Shown in pieces: positions 13,557 through 30,413 of a DNA stretch of 64,000 nt. A program made the position numbers and the translations under genes. Under the pieces are notes generated by a model. The model was not told the DNA's origin, did not search any database, and worked only from the letters and a program-made list of their open reading frames with translations. The DNA comes from Tolypothrix carrinoi HA7290-LM1. GTDB lineage: Bacteria > Cyanobacteriota > Cyanobacteriia > Cyanobacteriales > Nostocaceae. The stretch's first letter is position 1, and the number at the start of each line of letters is the position of its first letter. The DNA lies in contig JAHHIK010000010.1 of assembly GCA_019358935.1 (NCBI GenBank), forward strand, positions 1 through 64,000, read 5' to 3'.

Positions 13557-13982
13557 TCATCGTCGCAGATTTAGCAATTCTTGGGGAGAAGCTAAGAGTT
13601 TGATTCTAGTAAATTGAATTTGCCGTTCTTGGTTGAGGACAAACAGCCACATGACGTTGACACCGCACCAAGTAGTTTGTGCTTTGCCACTCACCTGAAA
13701 TTCGATTTGATTATTATCCAAATTTTCGGAGATTCCCTGCCGAGGTTCGGCTTTAATGCCTTGAGCTTCTTGTTTTAAATAGGTAGCGATCGCATCAAGC
13801 CCCACAATACCAGATTCAAACGGCGGTTGCATCACACCATCAGGAGCAAACAAGCTTGCAGTCTCATCAAACTCTCCTGCGTTTAAACTTTCAAAATAAC
13901 GCAGTATCACAGGTTCGCTAATTCCCTCAATCTGGAATTTCTCAGCTTCGGTAGTCGCAATAATTGATTTTTCTGAAAGCAT
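13557..13982 (-). CDS. Orange carotenoid protein C-terminal domain homolog (CTDH/CCP, NTF2-like)
   Basis: IEGISEPVILRYFESLNAGEF, LFAPDG-QPPF, GKAQTTWCGVNV and IKLLASPQELLNL match the OCP-CTD pattern. Confidence 0.85.
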   Translation of the reverse strand: MLSEKSIIATTEAEKFQIEGISEPVILRYFESLNAGEFDETASLFAPDGVMQPPFESGIVGLDAIATYLKQEAQGIKAEPRQGISENLDNNQIEFQVSGKAQTTWCGVNVMWLFVLNQERQIQFTRIKLLASPQELLNLRR

Positions 13983-14810: not shown

Positions 14811-15206
14811 TTAATTCGATTTACCATCACTACCAAAATATTCTCGATAGCCACAAATTTTGTCTCCCCGCACATCAAAAGCAACAGCTATGCGATTTTT
14901 ATAAGGTTCTTTGTACATCATTCCCTCATCACGGAACTCAAAAACTACCGTCTTTTCATTGCTGGTAACGCTGTCTAAAGTCAGAGTTAACCCAGAACTG
15001 AAGACTTCACTAACATACTCAAAAAAAGCTTCAGCTTTCTGTTTACCGACATTTAAGCCGTGAAATTTTCCCATCGGAAACCAAAAGCTAAAGTCTTCAG
15101 TAAGCATATCTAGAAACGAGTTCCACTCCCCCGTCGCTAAACCATGTTTAAAGTGGGTAAACGCTTGATGTGCAACTTTCAAAGTATTTTCTGATTTTTC
15201 TGTCAT
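14811..15206 (-). CDS. NTF2/SnoaL-like protein
   Basis: FLDMLTEDFSFWFP...DVRGDKICGYREYF pattern. Start placed at MTEKS. Confidence 0.85.
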   Translation of the reverse strand: MTEKSENTLKVAHQAFTHFKHGLATGEWNSFLDMLTEDFSFWFPMGKFHGLNVGKQKAEAFFEYVSEVFSSGLTLTLDSVTSNEKTVVFEFRDEGMMYKEPYKNRIAVAFDVRGDKICGYREYFGSDGKSN

Positions 15207-15222
15207 TGTCACCACCGATTGA

Positions 15223-16230
15223 CTAAAATCTGACAACTACTTTGCCGCAATTCTTACCAGTAAGTAAATATTCTACAGCAGCCGGAATGGATTCTATGCC
15301 GTTGAACACAGTTGAGTCAATGGCAACTTTAAGTTTGTCTGTGTAGAACAAGTTTAACAGGCGATCGCGTGCTGACGGTATATATTCTTTATAATGAGGC
15401 ATCAAAAAACCTCGCACAGAAGCAGCTTTCCACATCAGTTGATGATAAATCCGAGGTTGTAGCACCTGTTCTACATTTAGAGCATATTCGGAAATGTAGC
15501 CAATAGTAACTAAACGTCCCCGAATCGCTAAATTATCAACGCAGCTATCGAAAACTTGTTTACCGACACATTCAAAAATTAAGTTAATGCCGTTGTTAAA
15601 TTCTTGTTTAAGGATTTGGTTGAGGTTTTCTTTGTGATAGTTGATAATGCGATCGCACCCCAATTTCCTCAGTAAATTTGCCTTTGCCTCGGTGCTACAA
15701 GTACCAATGACATGATTACCTGCTAACTTTGCCAATTGCACCGCAATATGACCGGTTCCCCCTGCTGCTGCTGTGACTAAAACTACTTCATTACTTTTCA
15801 TTTCCCCCACTTGTTCCAATGCAACCAAAGCTGATACACCTGTAGGCATCAGGGTTAGCACTTCTGGTGTAGCTTCCCGCACTTTCACCGCTAAGTTTGC
15901 ATCAATAACCTGATATTCTCGATAACCACCACCAAGCGCTGTAGTTATGACAGCATCACCCATTTGAAAATCTTTGACATTTTCACCGATAGCGACAACT
16001 TTTCCCACTGCTTCCACACCCAAATCAAAAGGAGGGGTCAAGTTAAAGTAGGGAACTTCACCACGACAAACTAAGGTGTCAAATCCACCGTTAATGCCAG
16101 CGAATTTGTTTTGAATCAAAAGTTGACTAGCAGCAGGTTTGGGAATAGGCAGTTCGACAATTTCAACAGCAGATTTAAAATCTTGGTTAAGTTGCTTTGC
16201 TATTAACTTTCTGTAGGTTTTTGTGTTCAT
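15223..16230 (-). CDS. MDR-family NADPH oxidoreductase (quinone/alkenal reductase-like)
   Basis: LGVEAVG, VTAAAGGTG, ECVG, GKVVV; no catalytic Zn cysteines. Confidence 0.88.
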   Translation of the reverse strand: MNTKTYRKLIAKQLNQDFKSAVEIVELPIPKPAASQLLIQNKFAGINGGFDTLVCRGEVPYFNLTPPFDLGVEAVGKVVAIGENVKDFQMGDAVITTALGGGYREYQVIDANLAVKVREATPEVLTLMPTGVSALVALEQVGEMKSNEVVLVTAAAGGTGHIAVQLAKLAGNHVIGTCSTEAKANLLRKLGCDRIINYHKENLNQILKQEFNNGINLIFECVGKQVFDSCVDNLAIRGRLVTIGYISEYALNVEQVLQPRIYHQLMWKAASVRGFLMPHYKEYIPSARDRLLNLFYTDKLKVAIDSTVFNGIESIPAAVEYLLTGKNCGKVVVRF

Positions 16231-16346
16231 TTCCAAATTTTAAATTTCCCTTACTCCTCAATTATTTTTAAAGAATAACTTGTAAAGGGCACAGATACCC
16301 GATTTCTTTGATAATTCGGGCATCTTGTTTCATTGTGGAGATTATA

Positions 16347-17147
16347 TTAAGCTTTTAAGGCTTTATCCCACTCTAACTGATGAGCTAAACCATACTTGAT
16401 AAAATCTTCTACTTTAGCTTTATCACTTTCACCAAAAACACCTAAACTGTAAGGATTATCTTGCATACGTTGTGTGACTTGCTCTTTTTCAAATCGTATC
16501 ACTTCCTCTCTAGGCTTATCCGGTTTAAAAAAGTCTACAACCAAGACGGTTCTATCATAATTGGTGTAATTATGCGGACAGTGTGGATAGCTGTGATCTA
16601 AAACCAGGAATTTTCCTTCATGCCAATAAAGCTGCTCATAGCATATTTTCATAGCCACATCTCCCTCTGGTACAATCAATCCTAAATAGCCACGATTCAT
16701 GTGAGGGTTATAGTTCACATGCAGCTTAATATCCAAGCCAGGATGGAATGTACCAAAATAGACATTTCTGATGATATTATCATCGCTAAAGTTAACTTTT
16801 TCTATCACCTTAGCCAAATTTGGGAAATATTTCTCTCTTAATGCAAGTGCTTTTTCTGATGCATCATCTGACTCATAATCAGGATATGGTATTTGATGGA
16901 CTTGAATATATTCTTCAATAAACAAACCTTGAAATAAAATACCAAAAGCACTGTATTTCGCATTACCCTTGGTTTTAATCGTTTTACTTTTAGGACCCAA
17001 AATATCGTAAGTGAATTTTAACTCTTCATCAGATGCATTCTTAATAAAGCGTGTAAACTCATCTCTAATAAGAAGCCAGTTATCTTGAAAGCTTTTGAGA
17101 AAAGGAAATTGCTCTGGGTCTATATGATACTCATTAAAAGTTTCCAT
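16347..17147 (-). CDS. Aspartyl/asparaginyl beta-hydroxylase-like Fe(II)/2OG dioxygenase
   Basis: PG-IKLH, YLGLIVP, WHEGK-LVLDHSYPH-N-RTVLVVD. AGGAG precedes the ATG at 17147. Confidence 0.8.
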   Translation of the reverse strand: METFNEYHIDPEQFPFLKSFQDNWLLIRDEFTRFIKNASDEELKFTYDILGPKSKTIKTKGNAKYSAFGILFQGLFIEEYIQVHQIPYPDYESDDASEKALALREKYFPNLAKVIEKVNFSDDNIIRNVYFGTFHPGLDIKLHVNYNPHMNRGYLGLIVPEGDVAMKICYEQLYWHEGKFLVLDHSYPHCPHNYTNYDRTVLVVDFFKPDKPREEVIRFEKEQVTQRMQDNPYSLGVFGESDKAKVEDFIKYGLAHQLEWDKALKA

Positions 17148-17284
17148 TGTCTTTTCTCCTGAAGATGATTTCATAAAAAACCGTTACATAATGATCGGAT
17201 TTGGTCTGCGTCCCGGTACGATGTTGGAATTCCTGACTAAAGCTTAAAGTTAGGTTCTGTACTTATTTTAGTGTGAGGTCAACT

Positions 17285-18754
17285 GTGTCTGAAGCTTCTG
17301 TATTAGATCAAATTATCAAAAATGTGCGGGTAGTTCGTCCCCATCAGGATGTAATCGAACTGCTTGACTTGGGAATTAAGGATGGTAAATTTGCTCAGAT
17401 TGCCCCTGATATTAGCCCAGACAAAGGCAAAGAGGTATTTGATGGCAAAAACCTGCTGGGCTTTCCTGGGGTCGTGGATGCCCATATGCACATCGGTATC
17501 TATCAACCCCTCGACAAAGATGCTGTAACTGAAACTAAAGCAGCGGCAATGGGAGGTGTGACTACTAGCTTAAATTATATCCGTACAGGACAGTATTATC
17601 TCAATAAAGGCGGCTCTTATAAAGATTTTTTTCCAGAGGTGTTGGCTTTATCCGCAGGTAATTTTTTTGTAGATTACAGCTATCACGTTGCACCTATTGC
17701 TAGTCAGCATATTGACGAAATACCTCTACTGTTTGAGGAACACGGTATATCTTCGTTTAAAATCTTCATGTTTTATGGCAGCTATGGTTTGCATGGTTTG
17801 TCAGACCAGCAAAACCTCTTTTTGATGATTAATAAAGAGGAAAGGTACGACTTTGCCCATTTTGAATTTATCATGCGCGGTCTAACTCGCTTGATGGAAA
17901 AACATCCAGAAGCGCGAGATACTATCAGCTTGAGTTTGCACTGCGAAGTTGCAGAAATTCTTAACGCCTATACAAAAATAGTTGAAAATGATTTCAGTCT
18001 TAGCGGACTGCAAGCTTACAGTGCAGCGCGTCCTCCTCATTCCGAAGGTTTAGCAATTTGCATTGCTTCGTATTTGGCACATGAAACTAACTGTGCAAAT
18101 ATCAATTTATTACACTTGAGTTCGCGTAAGGCAATGGAAGCAGCTTTAACTATGCAATCTGCTTTTCCCCATATTAATTTTCGGCGAGAAGTTACCATCG
18201 GACATCTGCTATTAGATGTTGATACCCCCACTGCAACTTGGGCAAAAGTAAACCCCCCTATTCGTCCTCGTGCTGATGTAGAATACTTATGGCAAGCAGT
18301 ACTTAACCATCAGGTAGATTGGATAGTTAGCGACCACGCTTGCTGTTCTGCTGAACAAAAAAGAAGTGCTAAAGACCCGAATAATATTTGGTTGGCAAAG
18401 TCTGGTTTTGGCGGTACAGAATATTTACTTTCTGGTGTATTTAGTGAAGGTAGCAAGCGGGGAATGTCCTACAATCACATGGCTAAATTGCTATCTTGGA
18501 ACCCATCGCGGCGCTTTGGTTTGTTAGAAAAAGGTGACATTGCCATTGGTTATGATGCTGACTTGGTGCTGGTAGATCCAAACGAAAGTTTTGTAGTAAG
18601 TGCGGCTGAATCAAAGTCACAACAAGGTTATACACCCTTTGAAGGAGTAGAGTTAACGGGACGGGTCAAGAGTACTTTTTTACGTGGAAATCTTATTTAC
18701 AATAACGGACAGGTTTTGGGTTCGCCTACTGGACTTTATTTAAAAAGATTTTAG
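17285..18754 (+). CDS. Cyclic amidohydrolase (allantoinase/dihydropyrimidinase/dihydroorotase superfamily)
   Basis: PGVVDAHMH, SFKIFM, LHCE, LHLS, KVNPPIR, SDHA, GYDADLV. Confidence 0.88.
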   Translation: MSEASVLDQIIKNVRVVRPHQDVIELLDLGIKDGKFAQIAPDISPDKGKEVFDGKNLLGFPGVVDAHMHIGIYQPLDKDAVTETKAAAMGGVTTSLNYIRTGQYYLNKGGSYKDFFPEVLALSAGNFFVDYSYHVAPIASQHIDEIPLLFEEHGISSFKIFMFYGSYGLHGLSDQQNLFLMINKEERYDFAHFEFIMRGLTRLMEKHPEARDTISLSLHCEVAEILNAYTKIVENDFSLSGLQAYSAARPPHSEGLAICIASYLAHETNCANINLLHLSSRKAMEAALTMQSAFPHINFRREVTIGHLLLDVDTPTATWAKVNPPIRPRADVEYLWQAVLNHQVDWIVSDHACCSAEQKRSAKDPNNIWLAKSGFGGTEYLLSGVFSEGSKRGMSYNHMAKLLSWNPSRRFGLLEKGDIAIGYDADLVLVDPNESFVVSAAESKSQQGYTPFEGVELTGRVKSTFLRGNLIYNNGQVLGSPTGLYLKRF

Positions 18755-18786
18755 AGGGCAGAGAAGCAGGGGAAGTTGGGGAGGTA

Positions 18787-19030
18787 AGACTCAAAAACCA
18801 TTTCGACAGACTCAAAAACCATTTCGGCAGACTCAAAAACCATTTCGGCAGACTCAAAAACCATTTCGACAGACTCAAAAACCATTTCGGCAGACTCAAA
18901 AATTATTTCGGCAGACTCAAAAACCATTTCGGCAGACTCAAAAACCATTTCGGCAGACTCAAAAACTATTTCGGCAGACTCAAAAACCATTTCGGCAGAC
19001 TCAAAAACCATTTCGGCAGACTCAAAAACT
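18787..19030. repeat. 21-bp tandem repeat AGACTCAAAAACCATTTCGGC x11 plus a partial unit
   Basis: Units start every 21 bp from 18787 to 19018; no spacers. Confidence 0.95.
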
Positions 19031-19063
19031 CAGCACTCAGCACTTTCAAGTCAGTATAAGAAA

Positions 19064-19879
19064 ATGAGCCAACGTATCAAGAGAGCCTTTTTAGACACAG
19101 AAGATGGACAAATTCTTTACCGTATAGGTGGAGAAGGTGAACCCATACTTTTACTGCACATGACTCCCCGCAGTAGTGATGAATTTCGAGAATTGATGCC
19201 TATTTTAGCTCCCAAAAAATTAGTAATTGCAATGGATTTAATGGGGTTAGGTGATTCTGACAAGCCCCCCAGAGTTTATTCAGTTGCAGACTATGCCAAA
19301 AATGCGATCGCACTTTTGGACGAATTAGGCATAAAAAAGACGAGCATTTTCGGTAGTCTTACAGGGGGTTATATTGCCGGAGAAGTGGCAGTAGCTTACC
19401 CAGAAAGAATTGAAAAACTCATCCTCTGCAATGTATATGGATTTGACGAAGAGGAAAAAGACAAGATTTTAAAGATATATTCTCAAGGGTCTCAAATTAA
19501 AGAAGATGGCTCTCACCTGATGGAAAGATGGTTAGCTCGTGTCAGTTACGCCGGCAAGGGAGAGTTAAATCACCGTTGTGTTTTGGATGATTTGAAAACT
19601 TTTAACTCTCCTGTATACCCTGGTTGGGCAGTAGCAAACTACTGTCTTTCTGCCCAAGAAAGATTTCGTTTGATTAAGTGCCCTACTTTGATTTTGTCAG
19701 GGAAAAAGGGGTTAGAACCATTAGAAAAAGCTGGTTTAGCCAAACCTGAGAATCAACTTTGGCTCAGGGAAGTAATTCCTGATAGCCAAACGGTTGAACT
19801 CGAAGGCGGAACCCTTTGGATGATCAATCAAATGCCGCAAGAAGTATTAAAAGTAGTTACTGATTTTCTGGAAAATTAG
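19064..19879 (+). CDS. Alpha/beta-fold hydrolase-like protein (non-canonical triad)
   Basis: LLLHMTP, MDLMGLGDSD, GSLTG elbow, CPTLIL. Confidence 0.85.
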   Translation: MSQRIKRAFLDTEDGQILYRIGGEGEPILLLHMTPRSSDEFRELMPILAPKKLVIAMDLMGLGDSDKPPRVYSVADYAKNAIALLDELGIKKTSIFGSLTGGYIAGEVAVAYPERIEKLILCNVYGFDEEEKDKILKIYSQGSQIKEDGSHLMERWLARVSYAGKGELNHRCVLDDLKTFNSPVYPGWAVANYCLSAQERFRLIKCPTLILSGKKGLEPLEKAGLAKPENQLWLREVIPDSQTVELEGGTLWMINQMPQEVLKVVTDFLEN

Positions 19880-19993
19880 TAACTACTTTTGCAAAATTAA
19901 TTAGGTATTTTAGTATAGAGGGACAAGGAACCAAAAATATAACTGCTTAGTAAATATACAAATAAATTTGCCTACCTACTTAGGAGGAATACA

Positions 19994-20917
19994 ATGAACG
20001 ACGAATTACCACTTATTATCGAGTGTCGTTGTAACGAAATAACCTATCGCGAGGACAATCCTGCTTTACCCTACTCTCCAAAAGAGATCATCCGCGAAGC
20101 AGTTCGTGCCTGGGAAGCAGGGGCTTCGATTTTCCATTGGCACGGGCGAGATCCAGATAGTGGGAAACCACGCAACGAAGTTGAACTCTATCTCGAAGTG
20201 ATACAGGGAATTCGCGAACAGACGGATCTCCTAATCCATCCGACGCTTGGCTACATTACACAGAATCGGGTAGAGGATCGCGTCCGGCACATCTTGGCAG
20301 TGAACGACGATCCATTGCTGCGGGTTGACATGGTACCAGTGGATTTCGGATCGCTCAACGTGGACTTCTGGAATCCCCAGGCGAAACAGTTTACTAGCTA
20401 CGACCAAGTGTACATTAATACTCGTGCTAACCTCATGGCGGTGCTTGAAGTATTCAAAAAGCACAATCTCTACGTCAGTTCAGTCTGTTGGGACGTAGGG
20501 CAAATGCGAACAGCGCGTTGCTTCCAGGAAATGGGACTTCTGCCACGGGAAACGCTTTGGGAGTTTGTCTTTACTGGGGAAGTGATGCCTGCTGGAGCTG
20601 CGGCGACTATACCGGGTTTGCAGGCGTTCGTGGCTGAGGTTCCTGCGGGTAACCAGTGGCTAGCACTTTGCTGGAATGGAGACGTAATGAGGGTGGCAGC
20701 CTGGGCAATCACGCTTGGCGGACACGTCGGAATTGGACTTGGAGATTATTCTTACACTCGCTTCGGTAAGCCGCATAATGGCGAGTTAGTAGAAAAGGTT
20801 GCGAAGATGGCGCATACACTCGGTCGCCAAGTTGCAACGCCAGCGCAGACCCGCGAGATCCTGAAAATGTCGCCACGAGCTTCCCTGCAAAAAGAGCTAC
20901 ACGCAACTGCTAACTAA
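19994..20917 (+). CDS. DUF849 / beta-keto acid cleavage enzyme family protein
   Basis: NPALPYSP, AGASIFHWHGRD, GGHVGIGLGD, GRQVATPAQTREIL; RBS AGGAGG. Confidence 0.88.
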   Translation: MNDELPLIIECRCNEITYREDNPALPYSPKEIIREAVRAWEAGASIFHWHGRDPDSGKPRNEVELYLEVIQGIREQTDLLIHPTLGYITQNRVEDRVRHILAVNDDPLLRVDMVPVDFGSLNVDFWNPQAKQFTSYDQVYINTRANLMAVLEVFKKHNLYVSSVCWDVGQMRTARCFQEMGLLPRETLWEFVFTGEVMPAGAAATIPGLQAFVAEVPAGNQWLALCWNGDVMRVAAWAITLGGHVGIGLGDYSYTRFGKPHNGELVEKVAKMAHTLGRQVATPAQTREILKMSPRASLQKELHATAN

Positions 20918-20956
20918 TACCAATTCACACAAACCCTGATACACATAGATTTCTCG

Positions 20957-21180
20957 TAGGGGCACATGAGCATTGCTCATTGGTGTCAACTTAAGGTAAA
21001 ACCCCAGTCCCGCAAGGAAATGAATTTCCTTGCTAATAGCTAAAGTCATCTAAAGATGACTAAAATAATGTGAAAAATATAATAGTAAACTGAAGTTTAC
21101 TTTAACTATTAGCCCTGAAATAAATTTCAGGGCGGGTGAGAAAGCCAACAGAAATGTAGGATGGGCAATGCTTGTCCTAC
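20957..21180. mobile_element. Composite REP/MITE-like repeat
   Basis: GTAGGGGCAC...GTAGGATGGGCAATGCTTGTCCTAC ends enclose four short palindromes, e.g. GCAAGGAAAT/ATTTCCTTGC and GCCCTGAAAT/ATTTCAGGGC. Confidence 0.65.
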
Positions 21181-21211
21181 AGAAAAATGTAACTGCGATC
21201 GCTCAAAAATC

Positions 21212-22033
21212 ATGAAACAAAAGATTAAACGAGCTTTTTTAGACACAGAAGATGGACAGATTCTTTATAGAATCGGTGGCGAGGGTGAACCCATACTTTT
21301 GCTGCACATGAACCCCCGCAGTAGTGATGAATATCGCGAACTCATGCCTATCCTGGCTCAACACAGACGAGTCATAGCAATGGATTTGATGGGGTTTGGT
21401 GATTCGGATAAGCCACCCAGAATGTATACGATCGCCGATTACGCGAAAACAGCGATCGCTCTTTTAGATGAATTAGGTATAGAAAAAACGAGTATTTTAG
21501 GAAACCATACAGGTGCTTTTGTAGCCGGAGAAGTAGCAGCAACTTATGGCGATCGCATTGAAAAACTGATCTTAGGTAACGTAGCTGGTTTCGGTGAAGG
21601 AGGACAAGCAGAGCTATTCAGAAGATTTGAGGAAGGTTTTAAAATCAAGGAAGATGGCTCTCACCTCATGGAAAGATGGTTAGCCCGTTCTCGATACGTA
21701 GGCTCTGCCGAATTAAATCATCGTTGGGTTTTAGACGATTTAAAATGTTTTGGTCATCCTTTATACGCAGTTTGGGCTGTAGGCAATTACTGTCTAGATG
21801 CACCAGAAAGATTTCGTTCGATAGAGTGTCCAACTCTCATTATCTGGGGAATTGATGATGTCAAAGAATTTGAAAAACTGAGTTTAGCAAAAGCTGGCGA
21901 TCGCTATTTTCTTTCTCAAGCAATTCCTCATAGCAAAGTCGTTGAATTTGCACAAGGAACAATTTGCATGATGAATCAGATACCTGAAGAAGTAGCGAAG
22001 GCAGTAATCGACTTTCTGAACAATTCGGAATAG
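21212..22033 (+). CDS. Alpha/beta-fold hydrolase-like protein, paralog of 19064-19879
   Basis: Identical N-terminal IKRAFLDTEDGQILYRIGGEGEPILLLHM; GNHTG elbow. Confidence 0.85.
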   Translation: MKQKIKRAFLDTEDGQILYRIGGEGEPILLLHMNPRSSDEYRELMPILAQHRRVIAMDLMGFGDSDKPPRMYTIADYAKTAIALLDELGIEKTSILGNHTGAFVAGEVAATYGDRIEKLILGNVAGFGEGGQAELFRRFEEGFKIKEDGSHLMERWLARSRYVGSAELNHRWVLDDLKCFGHPLYAVWAVGNYCLDAPERFRSIECPTLIIWGIDDVKEFEKLSLAKAGDRYFLSQAIPHSKVVEFAQGTICMMNQIPEEVAKAVIDFLNNSE

Positions 22034-22041
22034 TTCAGCCT

Positions 22042-22494
22042 CTAATTTTCTAGGACTGCTGTACACTTAATCTCTACGATTAGTCCAGGTGTAGATAAAG
22101 CAGTTATCCCAAATCCCGTCCAAGTAGGGAAATTATTAGTGAAATAGCGATCTTTTACTTTCATAAACAGTGGCAGGTGTGGAATGGTAAACTGCTGTTC
22201 TGAAGCATCAGAAGGCTGAACTTGCATACCGAGATTTACTTTTGTCACATGGTAAGTAATCATCTCTACCACATCGTCAAAAGTGGCTCCTGCTGCTGTA
22301 AGTACCTTTTTCACATTCTCGAAAGTCTGGACAAATTGGGCTTCTATTCCCTCTACTACCTGTAAATTTTCATCGCGTCCTACCTGTCCTGAGATATATA
22401 ATGTATTGCCTACCTTAATGCCAGGACAATAGTGAAACTTTTCGTATAAGATTTCCATCCCTTTGGGAATAATGACTTCACGGGTCTTCACCAT
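22042..22494 (-). CDS. Rid (YjgF/YER057c/UK114) family protein
   Basis: LYISGQVG, QTFENV-L-AAG, PTWT, VEIKCTA. Confidence 0.88.
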   Translation of the reverse strand: MVKTREVIIPKGMEILYEKFHYCPGIKVGNTLYISGQVGRDENLQVVEGIEAQFVQTFENVKKVLTAAGATFDDVVEMITYHVTKVNLGMQVQPSDASEQQFTIPHLPLFMKVKDRYFTNNFPTWTGFGITALSTPGLIVEIKCTAVLEN

Positions 22495-22526
22495 CTAAAT
22501 AGCTCCACAATTTTTAAACTGAAATT

Positions 22527-23321
22527 TTAACCTCTCATGGCAGTGACAATCGAACGCGCAGCATCGGATAGCAACCAGGCATCAGCAGCAGGTGTCACGA
22601 AATCATAGCCCTTAGCGAACAGTTCGCGACCTCCTGCGGCATGGCGACTGATGCCTGCAAGCCAACAATCGGGGGTGGAGTGGACTATTGCTTCAGCTTC
22701 CGCCATCAGTCGGTCAAGTTCTGAATTATCGTAAGTTCCAAACTTGCTCAGTGCAGCAAAATCGTCCACGATGTCTGCCGTCAGATCGCCTGGTCCTAAA
22801 AATACCATATCAATCCCGTCAACTGCGGCAATTTCCTTAACATTCTCAAAACCCCGACGGGTTTCAACGATTACGGCTATAAGTAGGTTCTCCCGATAAT
22901 TGGCAGGATACTCTAGCTCTGCCAAACCCCAGTTAGCTGCTCGGGACTCCGGATAACCAACACCTCGGTGTCCACCATGAGGTCGATAGCGGGTTGCAGC
23001 AACGATTGCTCGCGCTTCATCTGCTGATTCTACAGTCGGAACGAGTATACCTTCCACGCCCATATCCAAGGCTCGCTTGATATAGACTGGATCGTGTGAA
23101 GGCACACGCAAAATGCAGGTGACATCTGTTGCCTGAGCAGCACGGAGTTGCTCTACTAGGACGTGCATATCCGTAGCGCCATGTTCGTGGTCGATGATAA
23201 AGGCATCGAACCCACACATAGAAAGAAGTTCGATTGAGTCACTATCTGAGAAAAAAATCCAGCAACCGATTGGTTGGGAATCGGTTTGGAGCATTTTCTT
23301 CAGCCTATTAGGTCTGAACAT
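22527..23321 (-). CDS. HpcH/HpaI family aldolase
   Basis: IIDHEH, LRVP, IKRALDMG, IVET, FLGPGDL. Confidence 0.9.
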   Translation of the reverse strand: MFRPNRLKKMLQTDSQPIGCWIFFSDSDSIELLSMCGFDAFIIDHEHGATDMHVLVEQLRAAQATDVTCILRVPSHDPVYIKRALDMGVEGILVPTVESADEARAIVAATRYRPHGGHRGVGYPESRAANWGLAELEYPANYRENLLIAVIVETRRGFENVKEIAAVDGIDMVFLGPGDLTADIVDDFAALSKFGTYDNSELDRLMAEAEAIVHSTPDCWLAGISRHAAGGRELFAKGYDFVTPAADAWLLSDAARSIVTAMRG

Positions 23322-23371
23322 AATTCGCTATACTATACATTACCTCCAACGCCTCAATAATTGTATATTGA

Positions 23372-23598
23372 AGAAGGCAGAAGGCAGAGGGCAGAGGGCA
23401 GAAGGAACAAGTCAGAAGGGGATGAAAAAAGGCGTGTCGCCGGACAGAACCTTCTGTCCGGCGAACCGCCGCCCCCTCCTGACTTGGAGCCACTGAACAA
23501 GAGTTCAGTGGGGGTCTTAAACCCTTGTTCCCTTCGGTCACACTTCTAGGGCAGGAGGCAGTATTCCTTCAGCATAGCTGCCTCCTGCCCTCTGCCTT
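23372..23598. repeat. Composite repeat: (GGCAGAA/GGCAGAG)n heptamers with nested palindromes
   Basis: Hairpins TCGCCGGACAGAA/TTCTGTCCGGCGA and CCACTGAAC/GTTCAGTGG; inverted CTGCC ends. Confidence 0.65.
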
Positions 23599-23883
23599 TT
23601 TTGATAAATATCCACCCAATCTCCTTGATGACGAACCAGAACGGGTATTTATTCTCGGATGAAAGTTGCGATCGCACTTTTTTTATTTACAGTATTTTGT
23701 TAATAAATCGTCGCTTGCTAAAAGTTAGACAATATTTAGATATTCGCGTTACCGATTCACAATCCGAGGATGCGATCGCTTATTTCTACTTTTTAGTCTT
23801 TCTGCTGTTCGTTCAACAATGTGAAAATCTAAATTTTCGTCTCGGAAAAACTTCAAGAAACTTTCTTCTCCAAATCAGCTTAA

Positions 23884-25272
23884 TCATTGAAGCCTCCGTT
23901 TCACTTCTTCAGCCAAATTAGCCAATTCTACTTCTACTTGCTCACCTGTTTTCAAATCTTTGAGCGAGGATTTTTGCGCTGCGGCTTCTTCAGAACCAAT
24001 AATTACACAGAATTGAATTCCTTGTTTTTCTGCTAGCTGGAATTGTTTACCCAATCCTCGTTTGTCAAAACTAGTTATAACATTAATGCCAGCCTTACGG
24101 AGCATTTGAGACACATTTAAATAAATGGGCATCAAATCCTCTTGCATATTTACTACCATCACCTGTGCTGGTGTGGCAGCTAAGGTATTGAGAATACCAG
24201 CTTTTAACAATCTACTAATTAAACGAGTTAAGCCGATAGAAATGCCGACACCAGGCATTTTATCACCGATAAATGTTCCTACTAATTCTTCATATCTGCC
24301 ACCAGAGCAAATACTGCCTAAAGCTTCATGTCCTAATAAAGTTGTTTCGTAAACTGTGCCCGTATAATAATCTAAACCACGAGCGATCGCTAAATCTATA
24401 CAAAACCTATTTTCGGCTACTCCAAGATTACGTACACCTGCAATCACCGTTTCTATTTCAGCAACTCCCAGACTAAATTGCTCGGCTTCTGGCAGATTTT
24501 GCGCGAGGTGCTTGAGTTTATCTAATACCTCATCAACTGTACCGTCAATTTTAATAAAATCAATTATTTTTTGTGTCTGTTCTGCTAAAATGCCTTCTTT
24601 TTCTAACTCCTGCTTAACTTTAACTTCGCCGATTTTTTCTAAATTATCAATGATGCCGATACAGGATTTTATTTTATTCTCTGCAATACCTACAGACTGA
24701 AAGAAACCTGTGAGAATTTTCCGATTGTTGATGCGAATTAGAAAATCACCAATATGAATTGCTTCAAATATCTCAGAGATAATTGCAGGCATCTGAGCAT
24801 CATAAAGTAAGCTGAGTTCACGACGCGCAACTACATCAATATCGCACTGCCGAAACTGACGAAAACGCCCATCTTTTGCCCTTTCTCCACGAAAAACTAC
24901 ATCCATTTGGTAGCGGGCAAAGGGAAAGGTTAATTCATTCAAGTGACGGGCAATATAAGCTGCTAGAGGAACTGTTTGGTCAAATTTTAAAGCGCGTGCT
25001 TCTGAACCGGTTTCACCTGCTTTATCCCTCTCAGCCTGCCGATTTGGTGGCAAGATGGGGTCAATCCCATAAATAATATTGTCGCCTTGATTACCTTTGG
25101 CTTGCAAAACTTCTAAGCGTTCTACTGCGGGAGTTTCAATAGGTGTAAATCCATAACTTTCAAAAACCCTGCGGATGATATCTAGCAAATATAATTCCAA
25201 GCGCTTTTCGCTAGGAAGAAATTCTGGAAATCCGCTAGGGGTGGAAAAATTAATTTTGTCAGCTTTTGCCAT
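23884..25272 (-). CDS. hisS: Histidine--tRNA ligase
   Basis: FRGER-GRFRQFRQCD, ARGLDYYTG, GGRY, GISIGLTRL; C-terminal anticodon domain. Confidence 0.96.
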   Translation of the reverse strand: MAKADKINFSTPSGFPEFLPSEKRLELYLLDIIRRVFESYGFTPIETPAVERLEVLQAKGNQGDNIIYGIDPILPPNRQAERDKAGETGSEARALKFDQTVPLAAYIARHLNELTFPFARYQMDVVFRGERAKDGRFRQFRQCDIDVVARRELSLLYDAQMPAIISEIFEAIHIGDFLIRINNRKILTGFFQSVGIAENKIKSCIGIIDNLEKIGEVKVKQELEKEGILAEQTQKIIDFIKIDGTVDEVLDKLKHLAQNLPEAEQFSLGVAEIETVIAGVRNLGVAENRFCIDLAIARGLDYYTGTVYETTLLGHEALGSICSGGRYEELVGTFIGDKMPGVGISIGLTRLISRLLKAGILNTLAATPAQVMVVNMQEDLMPIYLNVSQMLRKAGINVITSFDKRGLGKQFQLAEKQGIQFCVIIGSEEAAAQKSSLKDLKTGEQVEVELANLAEEVKRRLQ

Positions 25273-25310
25273 GCCTTTTTTGGAATTAAAACTTCAAAAT
25301 GCCAATTAGC

Positions 25311-25757
25311 TTATCGTAGCCGTTCTTCTTGGATCAGGGTGCGTTGATAGATTTGATGGTTCTTAAACCAATGCCAAGTGCGAGCGCGATAGTTATTGTC
25401 AGGGCTAATTTGGATCATTTCATATAAAGACATTTCTGGCATTGTTTTATAAGAAAACCACAAAATCACGGTGGAATCGTCTGCTTCCCAGGCTTTCCCT
25501 TGAATGCGTTCTGTATCAAACCAGAGTTTTTTATCTTGGTAGGTTCCGGGAAACTGATGTTCTTCGTGTTTACCGTCAGACCAGTTGTAGCGATTAACTT
25601 GGTAGTAGGGATAAGGACCGTTTTCTGGAAACTCACAGGTTAAGTGAGATTCATGCTTGTCGAGGATTTTTCCTGCTGTATCAATCAGTGTATACGTACC
25701 TACCCAATCTCCTTTGTGGCGGAAAAGAACGGGCATTTCTTCTTTAATGGTAGACAT
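25311..25757 (-). CDS. DUF3598-like lipocalin/beta-barrel protein
   Basis: N-terminal GDW-GTY motif and aromatic beta-strand pattern ending RARTWHWF. Confidence 0.7.
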   Translation of the reverse strand: MSTIKEEMPVLFRHKGDWVGTYTLIDTAGKILDKHESHLTCEFPENGPYPYYQVNRYNWSDGKHEEHQFPGTYQDKKLWFDTERIQGKAWEADDSTVILWFSYKTMPEMSLYEMIQISPDNNYRARTWHWFKNHQIYQRTLIQEERLR

Positions 25758-25911
25758 AATAAAACTCCTATTAACGAACCGCAGAGAACGCGGAGGACAC
25801 AGAGGAATGAGAGGAGCGATCTTGGTTTTTGCCTAAGTTTTGATAAATTCTGGATTTACGTTATTACTCTTAAAATCTCAGCATATCCATAAGATTAAAA
25901 TAGCTCTGGCT

Positions 25912-27327
25912 TTATTGGCTATTAAACCACCAAGGGTCGCTAACAGTGTTAGTTTTCACCAAAAATGCTTTTTTCCGCATGAATCGTGTCAGCGCGGCTG
26001 GTCCCATGCGCGAACCTCCCATACCTGAGAATTTAAAGGCGTTTTTTTCTCCCTCGTGCATGAGAGCGGTGAGTGCAGCATCGTTGATACTGATTGCTCC
26101 TGCATCTATCTGCTGGGCGACTTTTAATGCTTCTGCTTCCGAGCCAAAGACAGCAGCACTTAGCCCATAAATGGTATCGTTGGCTAATGCGATCGCTTCT
26201 TCAATTCTAGAAAAAGCCATCACCGGCATAATTGGTCCAAAAGTCTCTTCGGTCATCACTTTCATCGAATGGTTAACACTTGTGAGAACTGTTGGACGAC
26301 ACCACCAACCACCACTCAATTGCTCTACTTCCCCACCGCAGTGAATTACCGCTTTTTTAGACACTGCGTCTTGCAAATGGTCTTTAATAATTGCTGCTTG
26401 TCTTTCGGCAATAATCGGACCGATTTCGCCATCTTCAATTTTAGGATGAGCCAGCCGCAGGCGATATGCTTTAGTTACAAGTTGATGGTAAAACTTATCA
26501 AAAATAGATTCAGCAACATAAATTCTCTCAATCGACAAGCAAGATTGTCCGGTGTTGACGACGGAACCCCACAAAATTGCTGATGTTGCTAATTCTATAT
26601 CGGCTGATTCTAAAACGATCGCCGGGTCTTTTCCGCCTAATTCTAAAAAAGCAGGAATAAACTGTCTCGCTGCTGCTTCTGCTACTTTTCGTCCGGTGGC
26701 TACACTGCCGGTAAAGCACACCAAATCCACATTGTCAATTAATGCGGCTCCAGTTTCGCCGGCTCCCTCAATAAAAGTTAATATATCGCGTAATTTGGGA
26801 ACGCTGTTAAGTGTCGCTAACAAAGGTGCCACGAAGCGGGGAGCAATTTCACTGGGTTTGACAATGACGGCACAACCCGCTAGCAATGCAGGAATCGTAT
26901 CAATCGTAGACAGCAATAAGGGAAAATTCCAGGGGCTAATCACCCCAACTAGCGAATAAGGAACCGCTGTTTGTTGCAGTTCGATAAACGGTATTGCTGT
27001 ACCTTTTTCCAAGTCTTGTAATAATTTTGGCGCTAATCCACACCAGCGATCGATGCTGGAGAGGAATGAGTCAATTTCCAGCACCGAGATGGATAATCTG
27101 CCCGTATCAGCAACTAAAGCTTCAGTCAGTTTATCACGCCCAGATAATATCGCTTGCTTCCACTGCTGTAAAGCTTCTATTCGCCCTTCTAAACCAATTT
27201 GCAGCCAGCTTTTTTGCGCCCTCCGCAAACGGCTACATTGTTGTGCCAGAAGCTTTGAAGGTGGCGGTATAATCACGTAGTCATATTTTCCGGTTCGGGG
27301 GTTGCGAACTTCTATTGGTTTGGTCAT
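25912..27327 (-). CDS. Aldehyde dehydrogenase
   Basis: PWNFP, KPSE, FTGS, LELGGKD, GQSC, EETFGP. Confidence 0.95.
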   Translation of the reverse strand: MTKPIEVRNPRTGKYDYVIIPPPSKLLAQQCSRLRRAQKSWLQIGLEGRIEALQQWKQAILSGRDKLTEALVADTGRLSISVLEIDSFLSSIDRWCGLAPKLLQDLEKGTAIPFIELQQTAVPYSLVGVISPWNFPLLLSTIDTIPALLAGCAVIVKPSEIAPRFVAPLLATLNSVPKLRDILTFIEGAGETGAALIDNVDLVCFTGSVATGRKVAEAAARQFIPAFLELGGKDPAIVLESADIELATSAILWGSVVNTGQSCLSIERIYVAESIFDKFYHQLVTKAYRLRLAHPKIEDGEIGPIIAERQAAIIKDHLQDAVSKKAVIHCGGEVEQLSGGWWCRPTVLTSVNHSMKVMTEETFGPIMPVMAFSRIEEAIALANDTIYGLSAAVFGSEAEALKVAQQIDAGAISINDAALTALMHEGEKNAFKFSGMGGSRMGPAALTRFMRKKAFLVKTNTVSDPWWFNSQ

Positions 27328-27549
27328 TGAGAATAGGTAATTGGTGATGGGTAATTGGTAATGGGGAATAGGTAATTGAGAATGGGGAATTGGTCATTGA
27401 GAATAGGTAATTGGGAACGTGAGAATAGGTAATTGGGAATTATTTTTATTCCTCATTCCCCATCACCCATCACCCATTACCCCTGATCCCACTTTCCACT
27501 CCCCATTACCCATTACCCATTACCCATTACCCATTACCCATTACCAATT
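27322..27549. repeat. STRR heptamer arrays (GGTAATT/GGGAATT)n and (CCCATTA)n
   Basis: Tandem heptamers in opposite orientations; the last units overlap the nitrilase stop codon. Confidence 0.85.
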
Positions 27550-28586
27550 ACCCCTAATTTTCCTAGACGCTCGATGGTTTCTTGCTGTGTTTGGATAAAG
27601 TGTTTGCGGTCTACTTCTTTATTTAGCATAGTGTTTGCTGGGTAGAAATGGGACTGGCGGTAACTTTCTGCGTATAGCTCAAATCGCTGCCGTGAAAGTA
27701 AATTATTTAACCCTGGTCGGTGGCGATCGCGTCGTAAAGCTGCCAGGTCAATCTCGGCAAAAGCTGCCATGCTCTCACCTGCATCAGCTTGAGTTAAAAC
27801 AATTCCTCGATGGTCAATAATTTTAGAACCACCATCAGCCGATGCAATAGGAATCGGGATATTTGCAATGCCTGCTGTATTGCTTGAGACTACGTATGCC
27901 ATATTTTCTACTGCACGGCTGATTTTTGCGGCATCTTTAGGCGTTAACATTTTGCTATACACTTCTGATGTCGAATGCAGAAAAATCTCTGCACCGCGCA
28001 TTGCTAGACACCGCGCTACTTCTGGATATAAAATTTCTTCTGATGCGATCGCTGCCAAATTACCGATCGCCGTCTTCGCTACCGGAAAAACACCCTCTAA
28101 TCCGTAGCAATCTAGATACTTATCCCAGACATCGTGGGGTGTGGGGGCAAACATCGAATTCAGCCGTCGATACCGCAAGACAATTGACCCTGAGGGGTCG
28201 ATAACAAAGCAGGTTTGGAAGTACAATCCTGGAAAGTTCGGATCGAGTTCGTAGGCGTTTCCCGCCAAGAAGATATTATGCTTTTGGGCTATTTTACCAA
28301 GAGCTTCATACTCAGCACCAGCCATTTCCAAACAGGCTTTTTCTGCCCACACTGCTAAAGATTCTCCCATCGGAAAGCCTGTAAGAAAGTATTCCGGCAG
28401 GACAATTAAACGGCAGTCAAAGCCAATAAAAGCGATACTGCCAGCGATTTGTTGCGCCAAGCGGTTGATGGTTTGCTGCATGAGCGATCGCGCTTGGGTT
28501 CGATCGCTGGCTTGGTTAACTGCGTGGCACGTTACTTGAAGTGCCAAGGCACGAAATGAGTCTGTATTATCCGTATTAGCTGCCAT
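27534..28586 (-). CDS. Nitrilase-superfamily carbon-nitrogen hydrolase (atypical)
   Basis: LIVLPEY, YRRLN, ASEEILYPE-AR-LA-GAE, SRAVEN-YV-SN, GGSKIID-G. Confidence 0.85.
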   Translation of the reverse strand: MAANTDNTDSFRALALQVTCHAVNQASDRTQARSLMQQTINRLAQQIAGSIAFIGFDCRLIVLPEYFLTGFPMGESLAVWAEKACLEMAGAEYEALGKIAQKHNIFLAGNAYELDPNFPGLYFQTCFVIDPSGSIVLRYRRLNSMFAPTPHDVWDKYLDCYGLEGVFPVAKTAIGNLAAIASEEILYPEVARCLAMRGAEIFLHSTSEVYSKMLTPKDAAKISRAVENMAYVVSSNTAGIANIPIPIASADGGSKIIDHRGIVLTQADAGESMAAFAEIDLAALRRDRHRPGLNNLLSRQRFELYAESYRQSHFYPANTMLNKEVDRKHFIQTQQETIERLGKLGVIGNG

Positions 28587-28653
28587 GCTACTTGCTTTGT
28601 TCAATATTTCATGACGTTATTTCTTGGATGCGTAGACGTGTAGCGGTTTGTCG

Positions 28654-29409
28654 CTAGACACCACCCCAAAGCGCCCGAATTAGTTTGTTAGTCAATTCCG
28701 TACCCAGCATCTGCGCTGCTAACTTGTTGCCTGGATCGCGTTCAGCGCTGCTACGGCGCAAAAACAAGTCGCGTTCAGCCAAGCCAGCCCGCGCATCTTC
28801 TGGCATTGGTTCAGCCTCGTCTACCCACGTCAGCCAGCGTTCCAGCATTTCGTGTGCAAGTGTGCGAATCAGGTTAAGTGTGTCATCCGTAGCTGAACAG
28901 GTGTAGCAGAGGCTAATAGGCGATTGAAACTGGCGGACATACAAGCTCTTGCTAGTAAATAATGACAGACTGGGATTGCTGTGCAAACTCAGGAATGTTT
29001 CATTAACTGGCTCATAGTAGCGATCCAGATATTCCAGGTCAATCAAAATATCAGTTCGGGGGATGTAATCAATGTAAAAAAAAATATTTGGAAACGTGCC
29101 AAACTCAAACGCCAGATGAGGAACCCGGATATGCGATCGCAACCAGGTAGTCAGACGCATCGTGCTGAAGCTTGATTGTTCGGTCTTGGCAAACCACCCA
29201 TGCACTAACCAATCAATTTCTTCTCCAGAGAAGGTATTGAGCGAACCGTGTGCCTCTCCTGTCGTGGCAGAATAGCTCTGTAAGCTTTTCGTAGAAGGTT
29301 CTGGATGTAGCGTAAAACGAGCATCCAACTTCTGCTTGAGTTCGTTTGTAATACCCCATAACTGTTCAAATATAGCTGTATTGTCTACATTAGGTTGTTG
29401 CGAAATCAT
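28654..29409 (-). CDS. Red chlorophyll catabolite reductase-like protein (ferredoxin-dependent bilin reductase family)
   Basis: G-L-FSG-IDWLV-W, WL-RVPHL-FEF, DYIPR-D-YLDRYY, S-SLYVR-SP, W-W, ERD and DP motifs typical of RCCR. Confidence 0.8.
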   Translation of the reverse strand: MISQQPNVDNTAIFEQLWGITNELKQKLDARFTLHPEPSTKSLQSYSATTGEAHGSLNTFSGEEIDWLVHGWFAKTEQSSFSTMRLTTWLRSHIRVPHLAFEFGTFPNIFFYIDYIPRTDILIDLEYLDRYYEPVNETFLSLHSNPSLSLFTSKSLYVRQFQSPISLCYTCSATDDTLNLIRTLAHEMLERWLTWVDEAEPMPEDARAGLAERDLFLRRSSAERDPGNKLAAQMLGTELTNKLIRALWGGV

Positions 29410-29468
29410 TGTTTGTCTTTGCTTTGTTTGTATAAACTTAATGTAAACGAAGAACTCCAGGTAATAGC

Positions 29469-30413
29469 ATGTCAGATTCTGGTGCTACAGAGTCGAAAGT
29501 TGGTAAAGTTCTGCTCATCGGCGTGACTGGTGGCACCGGTGGTAATGTGGTCAAAGGATTTCGCCAACAGCAACTTACAAACCTGCGTGCCATAACTAGA
29601 AAAATTGACCTGAACCGTCCTTCGCTGTCGAAAATGAGCGAAGTTGGAGTTGAGTTGGTTGAAGCCAATTTAGACGATGAAAACTCCCTCGCAGCAGCTA
29701 TGGACGGCATTTCGGCTATTTATTGCCACGCTACTTCAGCGGACTCTGCCAAACCTGACCCGCTAGAAGTGGAGAGGGCAAAGCACGTTGCACAAGCGGC
29801 AAAAAAAGCCGACATCAAGCACTTTGTTTATAACTCCGCAGGTGGTGCAGACAGAAATTCCGGAATTCCCCATATTGAGCAAAAGTACAAGGTTGAGCAA
29901 ATTCTCAAAGCAGCAAACTTACCGACAACGATGTTGCGTGCGTGTTTGTTTATGGAGGAGTTTTGGAAAAAGTATACGCGACCGTCGATACTTAAGGGAA
30001 CTTTCCCATTTTCGATTCAGCCTGACAAGCCTTTACATCTGATTACAACTATAGATATGGGTCGCGTTGCTGCTTATGTGATGAAAAATCCTGACAAGTA
30101 CATCGGTCAAGAAATTGAACTTGCTGGTGATGTGCTGACTCCAAAGCAACTTGCCGAGGCATTTTCTCAAGCGCAGGGGACAAGTGTTGTTCACAAAGAA
30201 ACACCCGCGTGGATATTCTTACTTTTATTTCAAAAAGAATTGTACGCTTTGATTCAGTGGTATCGCCGCAAGGGTTATCAAGCTGATGTGCAGCACTTGC
30301 GGCAAGAGTTTCCGGGACTTTTGACTACATTCGATGAATTTCTGCAAGAAACCAACTGGGGAAATAAGGAACTAACTTATGAGAGTCTTTCAGGACTGGG
30401 GAGTGAAGATTAG
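29469..30413 (+). CDS. NmrA/HSCARG-like NAD(P)-binding protein
   Basis: IGVTGGTG Rossmann motif, HFVYNS, IPH-K-VE, ELAGD-LT. Confidence 0.88.
   Translation: MSDSGATESKVGKVLLIGVTGGTGGNVVKGFRQQQLTNLRAITRKIDLNRPSLSKMSEVGVELVEANLDDENSLAAAMDGISAIYCHATSADSAKPDPLEVERAKHVAQAAKKADIKHFVYNSAGGADRNSGIPHIEQKYKVEQILKAANLPTTMLRACLFMEEFWKKYTRPSILKGTFPFSIQPDKPLHLITTIDMGRVAAYVMKNPDKYIGQEIELAGDVLTPKQLAEAFSQAQGTSVVHKETPAWIFLLLFQKELYALIQWYRRKGYQADVQHLRQEFPGLLTTFDEFLQETNWGNKELTYESLSGLGSED

Follow-up and report, generated by a model that had tools for sequence, protein, structure and literature searches.

A modular, conserved gene set with rebuilt hydrolases beside an RCCR-like gene in Tolypothrix carrinoi and its possible role in the breakdown of pigment fragments

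In the plant pheophorbide a oxygenase (PAO)/phyllobilin pathway, red chlorophyll catabolite reductase (RCCR) carries two catalytic acids, Glu154 and Asp291 in the Arabidopsis enzyme; opening of the pyrrole rings is not known from plants. Cyclic imides are degraded in Blastobacter A17p-4 by an imidase and a half-amidase, and late nicotinate fermentation uses a dimethylmaleate hydratase and a 2,3-dimethylmalate lyase. Chlorophyll is made and degraded at a turnover put at ~10^12 kg per year (PMC7318184), and its catabolism is described as less studied in cyanobacteria (PMC4788461). Here, we analyzed a window of 64,000 nucleotides (positions 1-64,000 of contig JAHHIK010000010.1) of the heterocyst-forming cyanobacterium Tolypothrix carrinoi HA7290-LM1, in which an RCCR-like gene lies within a group of genes for small-molecule enzymes around hisS. 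An earlier note on this DNA had proposed a pathway for tetrapyrrole breakdown and nitrogen salvage centred on the RCCR-like protein. We find that the group is a real, modular, conserved, and undescribed catabolic gene set with rebuilt hydrolases. On balance, we lean towards a role in breaking down or detoxifying the one- and two-ring pyrrolic fragments of bilins or chlorophyll.

All 14 enzymes and hisS were present at 14811-30413, at the place and in the families given by the earlier note, as judged by open reading frame (ORF) positions and Pfam families. They form five runs on both strands: oxygenase-MDR-NTF2 (minus), amidohydrolase-hydrolase 1-DUF849-hydrolase 2 (plus), HpcH-Rid (minus), RCCR-C-N hydrolase-ALDH-barrel-hisS (minus), and NmrA (plus), where MDR denotes a medium-chain dehydrogenase/reductase and ALDH an aldehyde dehydrogenase. 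The gene set is thus not a single operon. Its members are as follows.

14811..15236, minus strand: SnoaL/NTF2-fold protein, a recurrent member (Pfam)
15223..16236, minus strand: MDR-family reductase, predicted C=C (ene-carbonyl) reductase
16347..17174, minus strand: AspH-type (Asp/Asn hydroxylase) Fe/2-oxoglutarate (2OG) oxygenase, His152 and His198 retained
17273..18754, plus strand: binuclear cyclic amidohydrolase of the allantoinase/hydantoinase branch, predicted imide/lactam ring opener
19064..19879, plus strand: alpha/beta-fold protein 1 (hydrolase 1), elbow G-S-L-T-G, paralogue of protein 2
19994..20917, plus strand: DUF849 protein, accessory member, closest to CESH[D] and not to beta-keto acid cleavage enzymes
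21161..22033 (start probably 21212), plus strand: alpha/beta-fold protein 2 (hydrolase 2), elbow G-N-H-T-G
22042..22494, minus strand: Rid-family protein, accessory member, predicted imine/enamine deaminase
22527..23321, minus strand: HpcH/HpaI aldolase, local insertion outside the conserved set
23884..25272, minus strand: hisS, housekeeping gene, site marker in Nostocales only
25311..25757, minus strand: DUF3598-like single-domain 10-stranded calycin barrel, core member, predicted small-ligand binder or lyase
25912..27327, minus strand: ALDH, core member, Cys263/Glu229/Asn134 intact
27534..28604, minus strand: nitrilase-fold C-N hydrolase, core member with Glu71-Arg146-Ser188, predicted amidase
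28654..29409, minus strand: RCCR-like protein (PF06405), optional, putative entry module
29469..30413, plus strand: NmrA-like NAD(P)-binding protein, a companion of RCCR in divergent orientation

The nearest named relative of the window is a Tolypothrix sp. locus with 93-98% protein identity. Across the neighbourhoods of close RCCR relatives (55 loci reaching at most 10 kb to either side, several shorter; matches at ≥45% identity), we found ALDH in 47, hisS in 39, the C-N hydrolase in 38, the barrel in 30, and NmrA in 22. The counts of the left-arm genes, which are low partly through the 10-kb reach, were four for hydrolase 2, three for NTF2, two each for amidohydrolase and MDR, and one each for oxygenase, hydrolase 1, DUF849, Rid, and HpcH. 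Gene order was read in 20 stretches, two of which came from RCCR matches and 18 from a search with 15.8 kb of DNA against 81 genomes of the order; that search scored three candidates per genome and therefore informs on presence only, never on absence. At least seven other families have the set genes regrouped, in a changed order and away from hisS. The order in G216 is NmrA, DUF849, RCCR, C-N hydrolase, ALDH, barrel, hydrolase, MDR, Rid, and NTF2; in G248 it is a VOC (vicinal oxygen chelate) protein, DUF1838, an isocitrate lyase (ICL)-like lyase, RCCR, NmrA, C-N hydrolase, ALDH, a PaO-domain Rieske protein, barrel, and NTF2. In G068, which has no RCCR, it is barrel, Rid, hydrolase, amidohydrolase, oxygenase, MDR, C-N hydrolase, DUF1838, and ALDH. 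Their clustering goes beyond chance, since other families again have these genes as neighbours, although rearranged. The SnoaL/NTF2 gene adjoins other set members in G216, G236, G248, G208, G206, and G201, and the MDR gene was found again in G216, G236, G068, G205, and G208. Rid also occurs in G032, G216, G068, and several metagenome loci, and DUF849 in G032, G216, L115/L142, and L127. We observed the 2OG oxygenase exclusively in cyanobacterial-looking loci, where it mostly adjoins the amidohydrolase. Also found repeatedly with the set are DUF1838, DUF4437, a VOC-like protein, an AbrB membrane protein, and two paired methyltransferases; an ICL-like gene lies within four cyanobacterial-looking clusters. 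In the own genome, the DUF1838 and VOC-like genes are solitary, on contigs C49 and C35, and an Atlas search with DUF1838 returned its own family alone.

A presence/absence profile across 131 genomes, the own genome included, separated the members further, with the qualification that related genomes are no independent samples and that some assemblies may lack parts; Fisher tests, being inflated by kinship, were given no weight. RCCR was present in nine genomes, seven of which also had the C-N hydrolase, against a background of 17/131; eight of the nine had the C-N hydrolase or the amidohydrolase. The profiling and synteny check suggested in the earlier note thus bore out a co-occurrence of the set with RCCR homologues. 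Of the 14 genomes with the amidohydrolase, 13 also had the C-N hydrolase; NmrA occurred in seven genomes, six of which had RCCR, and DUF1838 in 38. The position of RCCR as the centre of the set did not hold, as 10 of the 17 genomes with the C-N hydrolase had no RCCR match. Moreover, in L108, which is 89-97% identical to the window and keeps most of the set, RCCR alone is deleted, leaving a 22-residue trace, and in L113 and L163 NmrA is joined to the C-N hydrolase. HpcH, taken earlier for the C-C cleavage step, was present in one of the 131 genomes and otherwise only in the near-identical L001. Profile counts and RCCR loss therefore set a core apart from a module of RCCR and NmrA, with HpcH as a stray gene. 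RCCR and NmrA are an optional module and not the centre of the set. Likewise, hisS is missing from the clusters of families outside Nostocales; it is a landing site in Nostocales only. At several Nostoc loci (L008, L014, L016, L019, L021, L029, L035, L040, and L054), many of them from metagenome bins, the C-N hydrolase is lost or fragmentary while RCCR and ALDH persist, so that the set decays from either end.

The altered catalytic residues noted earlier proved to be real. The C-N hydrolase belongs to the nitrilase superfamily by Pfam and structural match, the latter with a model of middling confidence (predicted local distance difference test, pLDDT, 71) that we used for fold assignment only. 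Its Glu71-Arg146-Ser188 replaces the Glu-Lys-Cys triad and is invariant in 16/16 aligned rows; at least 2952 relatives were found at E 1e-40 among 8000 candidates scored. The metal site of the amidohydrolase is complete, with six residues (H71, H73, K163, H223, H281, and D354) that provide the His-x-His motif, the carbamylated Lys, two His, and the Asp. Its best family matches are allantoinase and dihydropyrimidinase, both below cut-offs (AllB, 229 of 358 bits; dihydropyrimidinase, 188 of 393). The two alpha/beta-fold proteins, 66% identical to one another, lack the C-terminal catalytic His and show His or Leu/Val where the elbow would hold the nucleophile, and hence depart from canonical hydrolases: the elbow of protein 1 has no nucleophile, while that of protein 2 has His at the nucleophile position, as do distant homologues. 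Matches to RutD (40 of 238 bits) and RutC (32 of 169) stayed below the model cut-offs, and family models for RutA and RutB found neither in the cluster, which sets the locus apart from the Rut pathway.

Among the remaining members, the ALDH is an orthologue of PDB 4h7n. We take All5022 to match it. All5022 is listed merely as a candidate in arginine catabolism tables (PMC2242806). The structure nearest to the MDR protein is prostaglandin reductase 3/ZADH2 (E 7e-70). The barrel gave a confident model (pLDDT 95.6), with structural matches to BFA1 (Z 18.0), DUF3598 (16.1), nitrobindin (14.9), the spirocyclase OlmO (14.4), CPES (12.9), and CpcT (9.1). Superposition on 4tq2 aligned 139 residues at a root-mean-square deviation of 3.1 and Z 12.9, in agreement with the S-type lyase fold, and an Atlas search matched a CpeS cluster at 0.94. 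By sequence, the barrel is not of the CpeS family, with no PF09367 match and an hhalign probability of 0.2. We assign it to the nitrobindin/CPES fold class, which by the model allows a tetrapyrrole ligand but does not demonstrate one. The DUF849 protein matched 5zmu, the cis-epoxysuccinate hydrolase CESH[D], at E 2e-62 and the beta-keto acid cleavage enzyme Kce (2y7d) at 4e-20; the named Kce model gave 155 of 382 bits and thus fell short of its cut-off. The key residues reported for CESH[D] are Arg11, Asp115, Glu190, and Asp251 (PMC6429283), of which the DUF849 protein keeps Arg11, Asp115, and Asp251, with Glu190 out of register. By sequence comparison, its closeness to cis-epoxysuccinate hydrolase is a new assignment.

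The set, most of which is contained in this region, is shared by some filamentous cyanobacteria and extends in part beyond cyanobacteria. Nonomuraea has an ALDH-barrel-C-N hydrolase trio with 52, 42, and 51% identity, respectively. A metagenome scan for C-N hydrolase loci covered the best 80 of 549 confirmed places, of which 46 were treated as distant or non-cyanobacterial on the basis of a C-N hydrolase less than 66% identical and of neighbours, rather than by a taxonomic test (flanks up to 10 kb; 27 loci at least 8 kb long). These 46 distant loci contained ALDH in 18, a methyltransferase in 12, DUF1838 in 11, a hydrolase-2-like (His-elbow) protein in nine, the barrel in seven, and the amidohydrolase in three, while oxygenase and DUF849 were found in none. 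Added modules, named from one representative per protein cluster, were coenzyme A (CoA)-transferase III (13), major facilitator superfamily (MFS) proteins (13), FAD-linked oxidase (12), TonB receptors (8 and 5), and isochorismatase (6). Genes suited to methyl-branched dicarboxylates were LeuC-like (9), LeuD-like (6), CoA-ester lyase (9), mesaconyl-CoA-hydratase-like (6), and PrpD (6). TonB receptors and MFS proteins flank distant loci, not cyanobacterial ones, which mostly lack importers and the last (dicarboxylate) module. On plasmid pSA1 of Novosphingobium resinovorum, barrel, DUF1838, hydrolases, ALDH, and a TonB receptor occur with LeuCD-like genes adjoining an ICL-like gene. Rhodococcus pDND3A carries the amidohydrolase (58%) among CoA transferase, PrpD, MaoC, and oxoprolinase genes. 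CpcT/CpeT genes were above cut-off in three of the 80 metagenome loci (L132, L157, and L177), L132 lying outside the 46 distant loci with a C-N hydrolase 70% identical; a CpcT profile of three proteins run over all 2093 ORFs added only weak matches, in L138.

The link of this set to tetrapyrroles is circumstantial and is drawn from an RCCR with both acids, a PaO-domain insertion in two families, and the CpcT genes. The RCCR-like protein passes PF06405 with 76.8 bits (cut-off 24.9), and its Glu102 and Asp225 align with Glu154 and Asp291 of the Arabidopsis enzyme, the numbering having been fixed via F218V (3aga versus 3agb). In distant bacterial-looking RCCR homologues, the residue at the Glu102 position is mostly Ala or Val. 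A quick tree of 54 rows placed the cyanobacterial RCCR-like proteins in one group, nearer to bacterial-looking than to plant-like proteins, with a weakly supported join (SH-aLRT 86). RCCR-like proteins serve as the outgroup of bilin reductases (PMC10151467). A PaO-domain Rieske gene directly adjoins the barrel gene in two families (L001 and L070; 58% identical). Of the earlier proposal of a tetrapyrrole pathway, the co-occurrence with RCCR homologues is supported, and further bilin- or chlorin-handling families were found beside the set; the RCCR centre, the HpcH step, and nitrogen salvage find no support.

Oxidation of chlorophyll and haem yields propentdyopents, bilirubin oxidation end products (BOXes) with a primary amide, alkyl-maleimides, and hematinic acid (PMC7318184). 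Candidate substrates of the set would be formyl-pyrrolinones, BOX-type amides, and alkyl-maleimides; an imide opener, an amidase, an ene reductase, and an ALDH match the activities that such fragments need. In the putative route, the RCCR-like and NmrA-like module would act early, on open-chain pigment, with the RCCR-like protein reducing one of the methine bridges in a linear tetrapyrrole, a step that a PaO-domain oxygenase would precede in some strains; RCCR, PaO-domain, and CpcT genes may be alternative front ends. Bridge scission might be chemical or be carried out by the 2OG oxygenase, the His-elbow hydrolase, DUF1838, or the VOC protein. The barrel would then hold the fragment, while ALDH would oxidise its formyl group and MDR reduce the C=C of an ene-lactam or maleimide. 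Subsequently, the amidohydrolase would open the imide, the Glu-Arg-Ser enzyme free ammonia from the amide, and Rid clear imines; the CESH-like DUF849 protein would take an epoxy-dicarboxylate. In heterotrophs, alkyl-maleate or -succinate products could be hydrated and cleaved by the LeuCD-like and ICL-like proteins or via a CoA route. The ring-opened products of such fragments would be methyl-branched dicarboxylates, to which the heterotroph modules are suited, and the restriction of importers to distant loci fits a compound made inside cyanobacteria and scavenged by others. Cyanobacteria probably use the set to dispose of their own pigment debris, on which heterotrophs would feed. Tentatively, the locus could even be the cyanobacterial arm of a first bacterial pathway from open-chain tetrapyrroles via pyrrole-ring opening to ammonia and methyl-branched dicarboxylates, with new chemistry in its Glu-Arg-Ser amidase and its His-elbow hydrolase, that serves mat, soil, and aquatic heterotrophs consuming chlorophyll and bilin debris; we hold this fuller version with less confidence than the fragment-breakdown role itself.

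Several observations weigh against a pigment-fragment role. No RCCR was found in the 46 distant loci, and in G158 RCCR stands without any set member within 20 kb. A profile search for PF08417 (PaO) found none in the own genome, with only weak Rieske matches on contig C46, and the PaO domain also spans other oxygenases. CpcT occurs in few loci, a raw count without a background rate. The barrel is closest to BFA1/DUF3598, ahead of nitrobindin, spirocyclase, and CPES, and its profile matched neither of the two CpeS-family proteins of the own genome significantly. Over 40 kb, the Novosphingobium locus lacks the C-N hydrolase, RCCR, and CpcT alike, and the Rhodococcus amidohydrolase cluster has no annotated pigment gene. 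Finally, a pathway for pyrimidines or purines could equally well employ the amidohydrolase, Rid, isochorismatase, and ureidoglycolate lyase. The core might degrade another small N-heterocycle, such as a modified pyrimidine, a hydantoin, or a methyl-pyridine, with RCCR, PaO, and CpcT being occasional neighbours or reflecting a changed substrate. The best matches of the amidohydrolase, the persistence of the core without RCCR, and the oxoprolinases, polysaccharide deacetylases, and ureidoglycolate lyase among distant-locus genes speak for this explanation, as does the combination of Rid, a nucleophile-less hydrolase, and isochorismatase, which is reminiscent of the Rut pathway. We nevertheless regard this main alternative as less likely than the pigment-fragment role, given that every match (allantoinase, RutD, RutC) is below its family cut-off, that three unrelated pigment-handling families beside one set would be left unexplained, and that purines do not account for the methyl-dicarboxylate module.

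An RCCR-centred recovery of nitrogen from chlorophyll and phycobilins during bleaching, ending in HpcH cleavage, appears improbable. It would agree with the RCCR-C-N hydrolase-ALDH-barrel run kept in Nostocales. However, RCCR-like genes occur in only 9/201 and 18/401 cyanobacterial genomes of two overlapping samples, and in 6/24 other members of the family; as L042, labelled Acetobacteraceae, behaved like a cyanobacterial genome, the 401-genome sample is presumed to be a second cyanobacterial sample, from matches at contig places shared with the 201-genome sample. Owing to this rarity, the set is not a general route of bleaching cyanobacteria. Nor was an NtcA-type box found in any spacer: a scan for exact GTA-N8-TAC, which left degenerate boxes aside, gave three sites, all inside ORFs, where ~3.6 were expected. 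Moreover, the two RCCR-like paralogues of N. punctiforme are reported to show opposite changes in hormogonia (PMC2716323). Still less probable is a set that makes or tailors a secondary metabolite rather than degrading one. The structure nearest to the NmrA-like protein is 5f5l, presumably an antibiotic-tailoring enzyme, the barrel resembles a spirocyclase, and the set includes a SnoaL fold, a 2OG oxygenase, a methyltransferase, and a gene resembling homocitrate synthase, but no scaffold-building enzyme recurs, and genes for importers, CoA transferases, and lyases are found in the distant loci. That unrelated genes merely accumulated at an insertion hot spot beside hisS is hardly credible. The five runs on both strands and the many loci with unrelated insertions between ALDH and hisS would suit it, and it does hold for HpcH; for the other 13 of the 14 genes, it is refuted by their regrouping without hisS in other families and other phyla.

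Regarding the RCCR-like genes, L049:10001-12800 contains two tandem paralogues flanking NmrA, an arrangement as reported for N. punctiforme (PMC2716323); the claim, in the same article, that RCCR homologues are confined to symbiotic strains is at odds with the named strains in which we found RCCR relatives. In P0203, a frameshifted read-through fuses an ALDH C-terminus with an RCCR-like stretch, hinting at ALDH-RCCR adjacency. One distant RCCR-like protein as query gave no match in viral contigs or plasmids, and the window's RCCR gave none in plasmids. In Rivularia-type loci (L027, L034, and L046), a short-chain dehydrogenase/reductase, a homocitrate-synthase-like gene, and a methyltransferase pair lie upstream of RCCR. 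Three single cases of tetrapyrrole-related neighbours that may be due to chance are two phycobiliprotein genes adjoining oxygenase-amidohydrolase (L073:7251-11405), a CobN/Mg-chelatase gene after the core (L072:6129-15364), and a solitary RCCR with a uroporphyrinogen decarboxylase at a distance of 4 kb (L081:4704-10723). Within the window, a 21-bp unit repeated in tandem ~12 times fills the spacer 18755-19063, and short heptamer repeats of a type common in Nostocales lie in the spacer between ALDH and the C-N hydrolase (27328-27533). The HpcH-hisS spacer (23322-23883) contains an element of ~245 bp that is also present, at 98% identity, on contigs C81 and C13 of the own genome. Promoter and terminator scans gave values near shuffle levels (40 versus 31.0 and 11 versus 14.7). 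Adjoining the cluster at 30697-32937 is a gene for a 746-aa pyridoxal phosphate-dependent decarboxylase (tyrosine-decarboxylase-like, below cut-off), which is absent from related RCCR loci. A Rieske oxygenase with two own-genome paralogues (34897-35886) is a cluster neighbour only in the very close relatives L001 and L108, and a second NTF2-fold protein (13557-13982), with a 49% paralogue on C11, lies just outside the region and is not a member of the conserved set.

A literature search, with supplements of transcriptome papers outside its reach, returned no description of this cluster and no paper naming enzymes that open pyrrole fragments. Biliverdin catabolism has reportedly been observed in Comamonas testosteroni, a report that we did not find in the literature and that would bear on novelty. 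If the pigment-fragment role is true, it would give a context to cyanobacterial RCCR-like genes, for which no role has been assigned since they were noted in 2009, and add two hydrolases whose active sites have been rebuilt. The candidates named here come from hosts that can be cultured (Nostoc, Calothrix, Nonomuraea, Novosphingobium, and Rhodococcus), and the candidate substrates are purchasable or published; the question is therefore open to direct assay.

Compared with known systems, the proposed route shares single features with each. The C-N hydrolase has the fold and the catalytic Glu of AmiE and AmiF (2uxy, 2e2k), but differs in Lys to Arg and Cys to Ser in 16/16 rows, at ~20% identity. 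The DUF849 protein has Arg11, Glu14, His47/His49, Asp115, and Asp251 at the positions of CESH[D] (5zmu), whereas the catalytic Glu190 aligns with Val192 and an invariant Glu lies two residues earlier. The barrel resembles S-/T-type phycobiliprotein lyases (3bdr, 4tq2, 4o4o) and nitrobindins in its ten strands and, by eye, in an E-x-N-x-R-x-R strand pair; unlike these lyases, it has no significant profile match and no known phycobiliprotein target, and BFA1/DUF3598 are closer. As for late nicotinate fermentation, LeuCD-like genes adjoin an ICL-family lyase in Novosphingobium and ICL-like genes occur in some cyanobacterial clusters, but the LeuCD/ICL pair lies outside this window, no nicotinate entry enzymes were seen, and the hosts are aerobic. 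With respect to the imide route of Blastobacter A17p-4, compared by description only, the Glu-Arg-Ser chemistry of the amidase and the many extra members are different, while a cyclic amidohydrolase and an amidase would likewise give a dicarboxylate and ammonia. The plant PAO/phyllobilin pathway (2zxk, 3aga) is set apart by a weak RCCR similarity (E 1e-10) and by the lack of a PaO match in the own genome; in common with it, the locus has an RCCR family match with both acids kept, and a PaO-domain gene is part of the cluster in two relatives.

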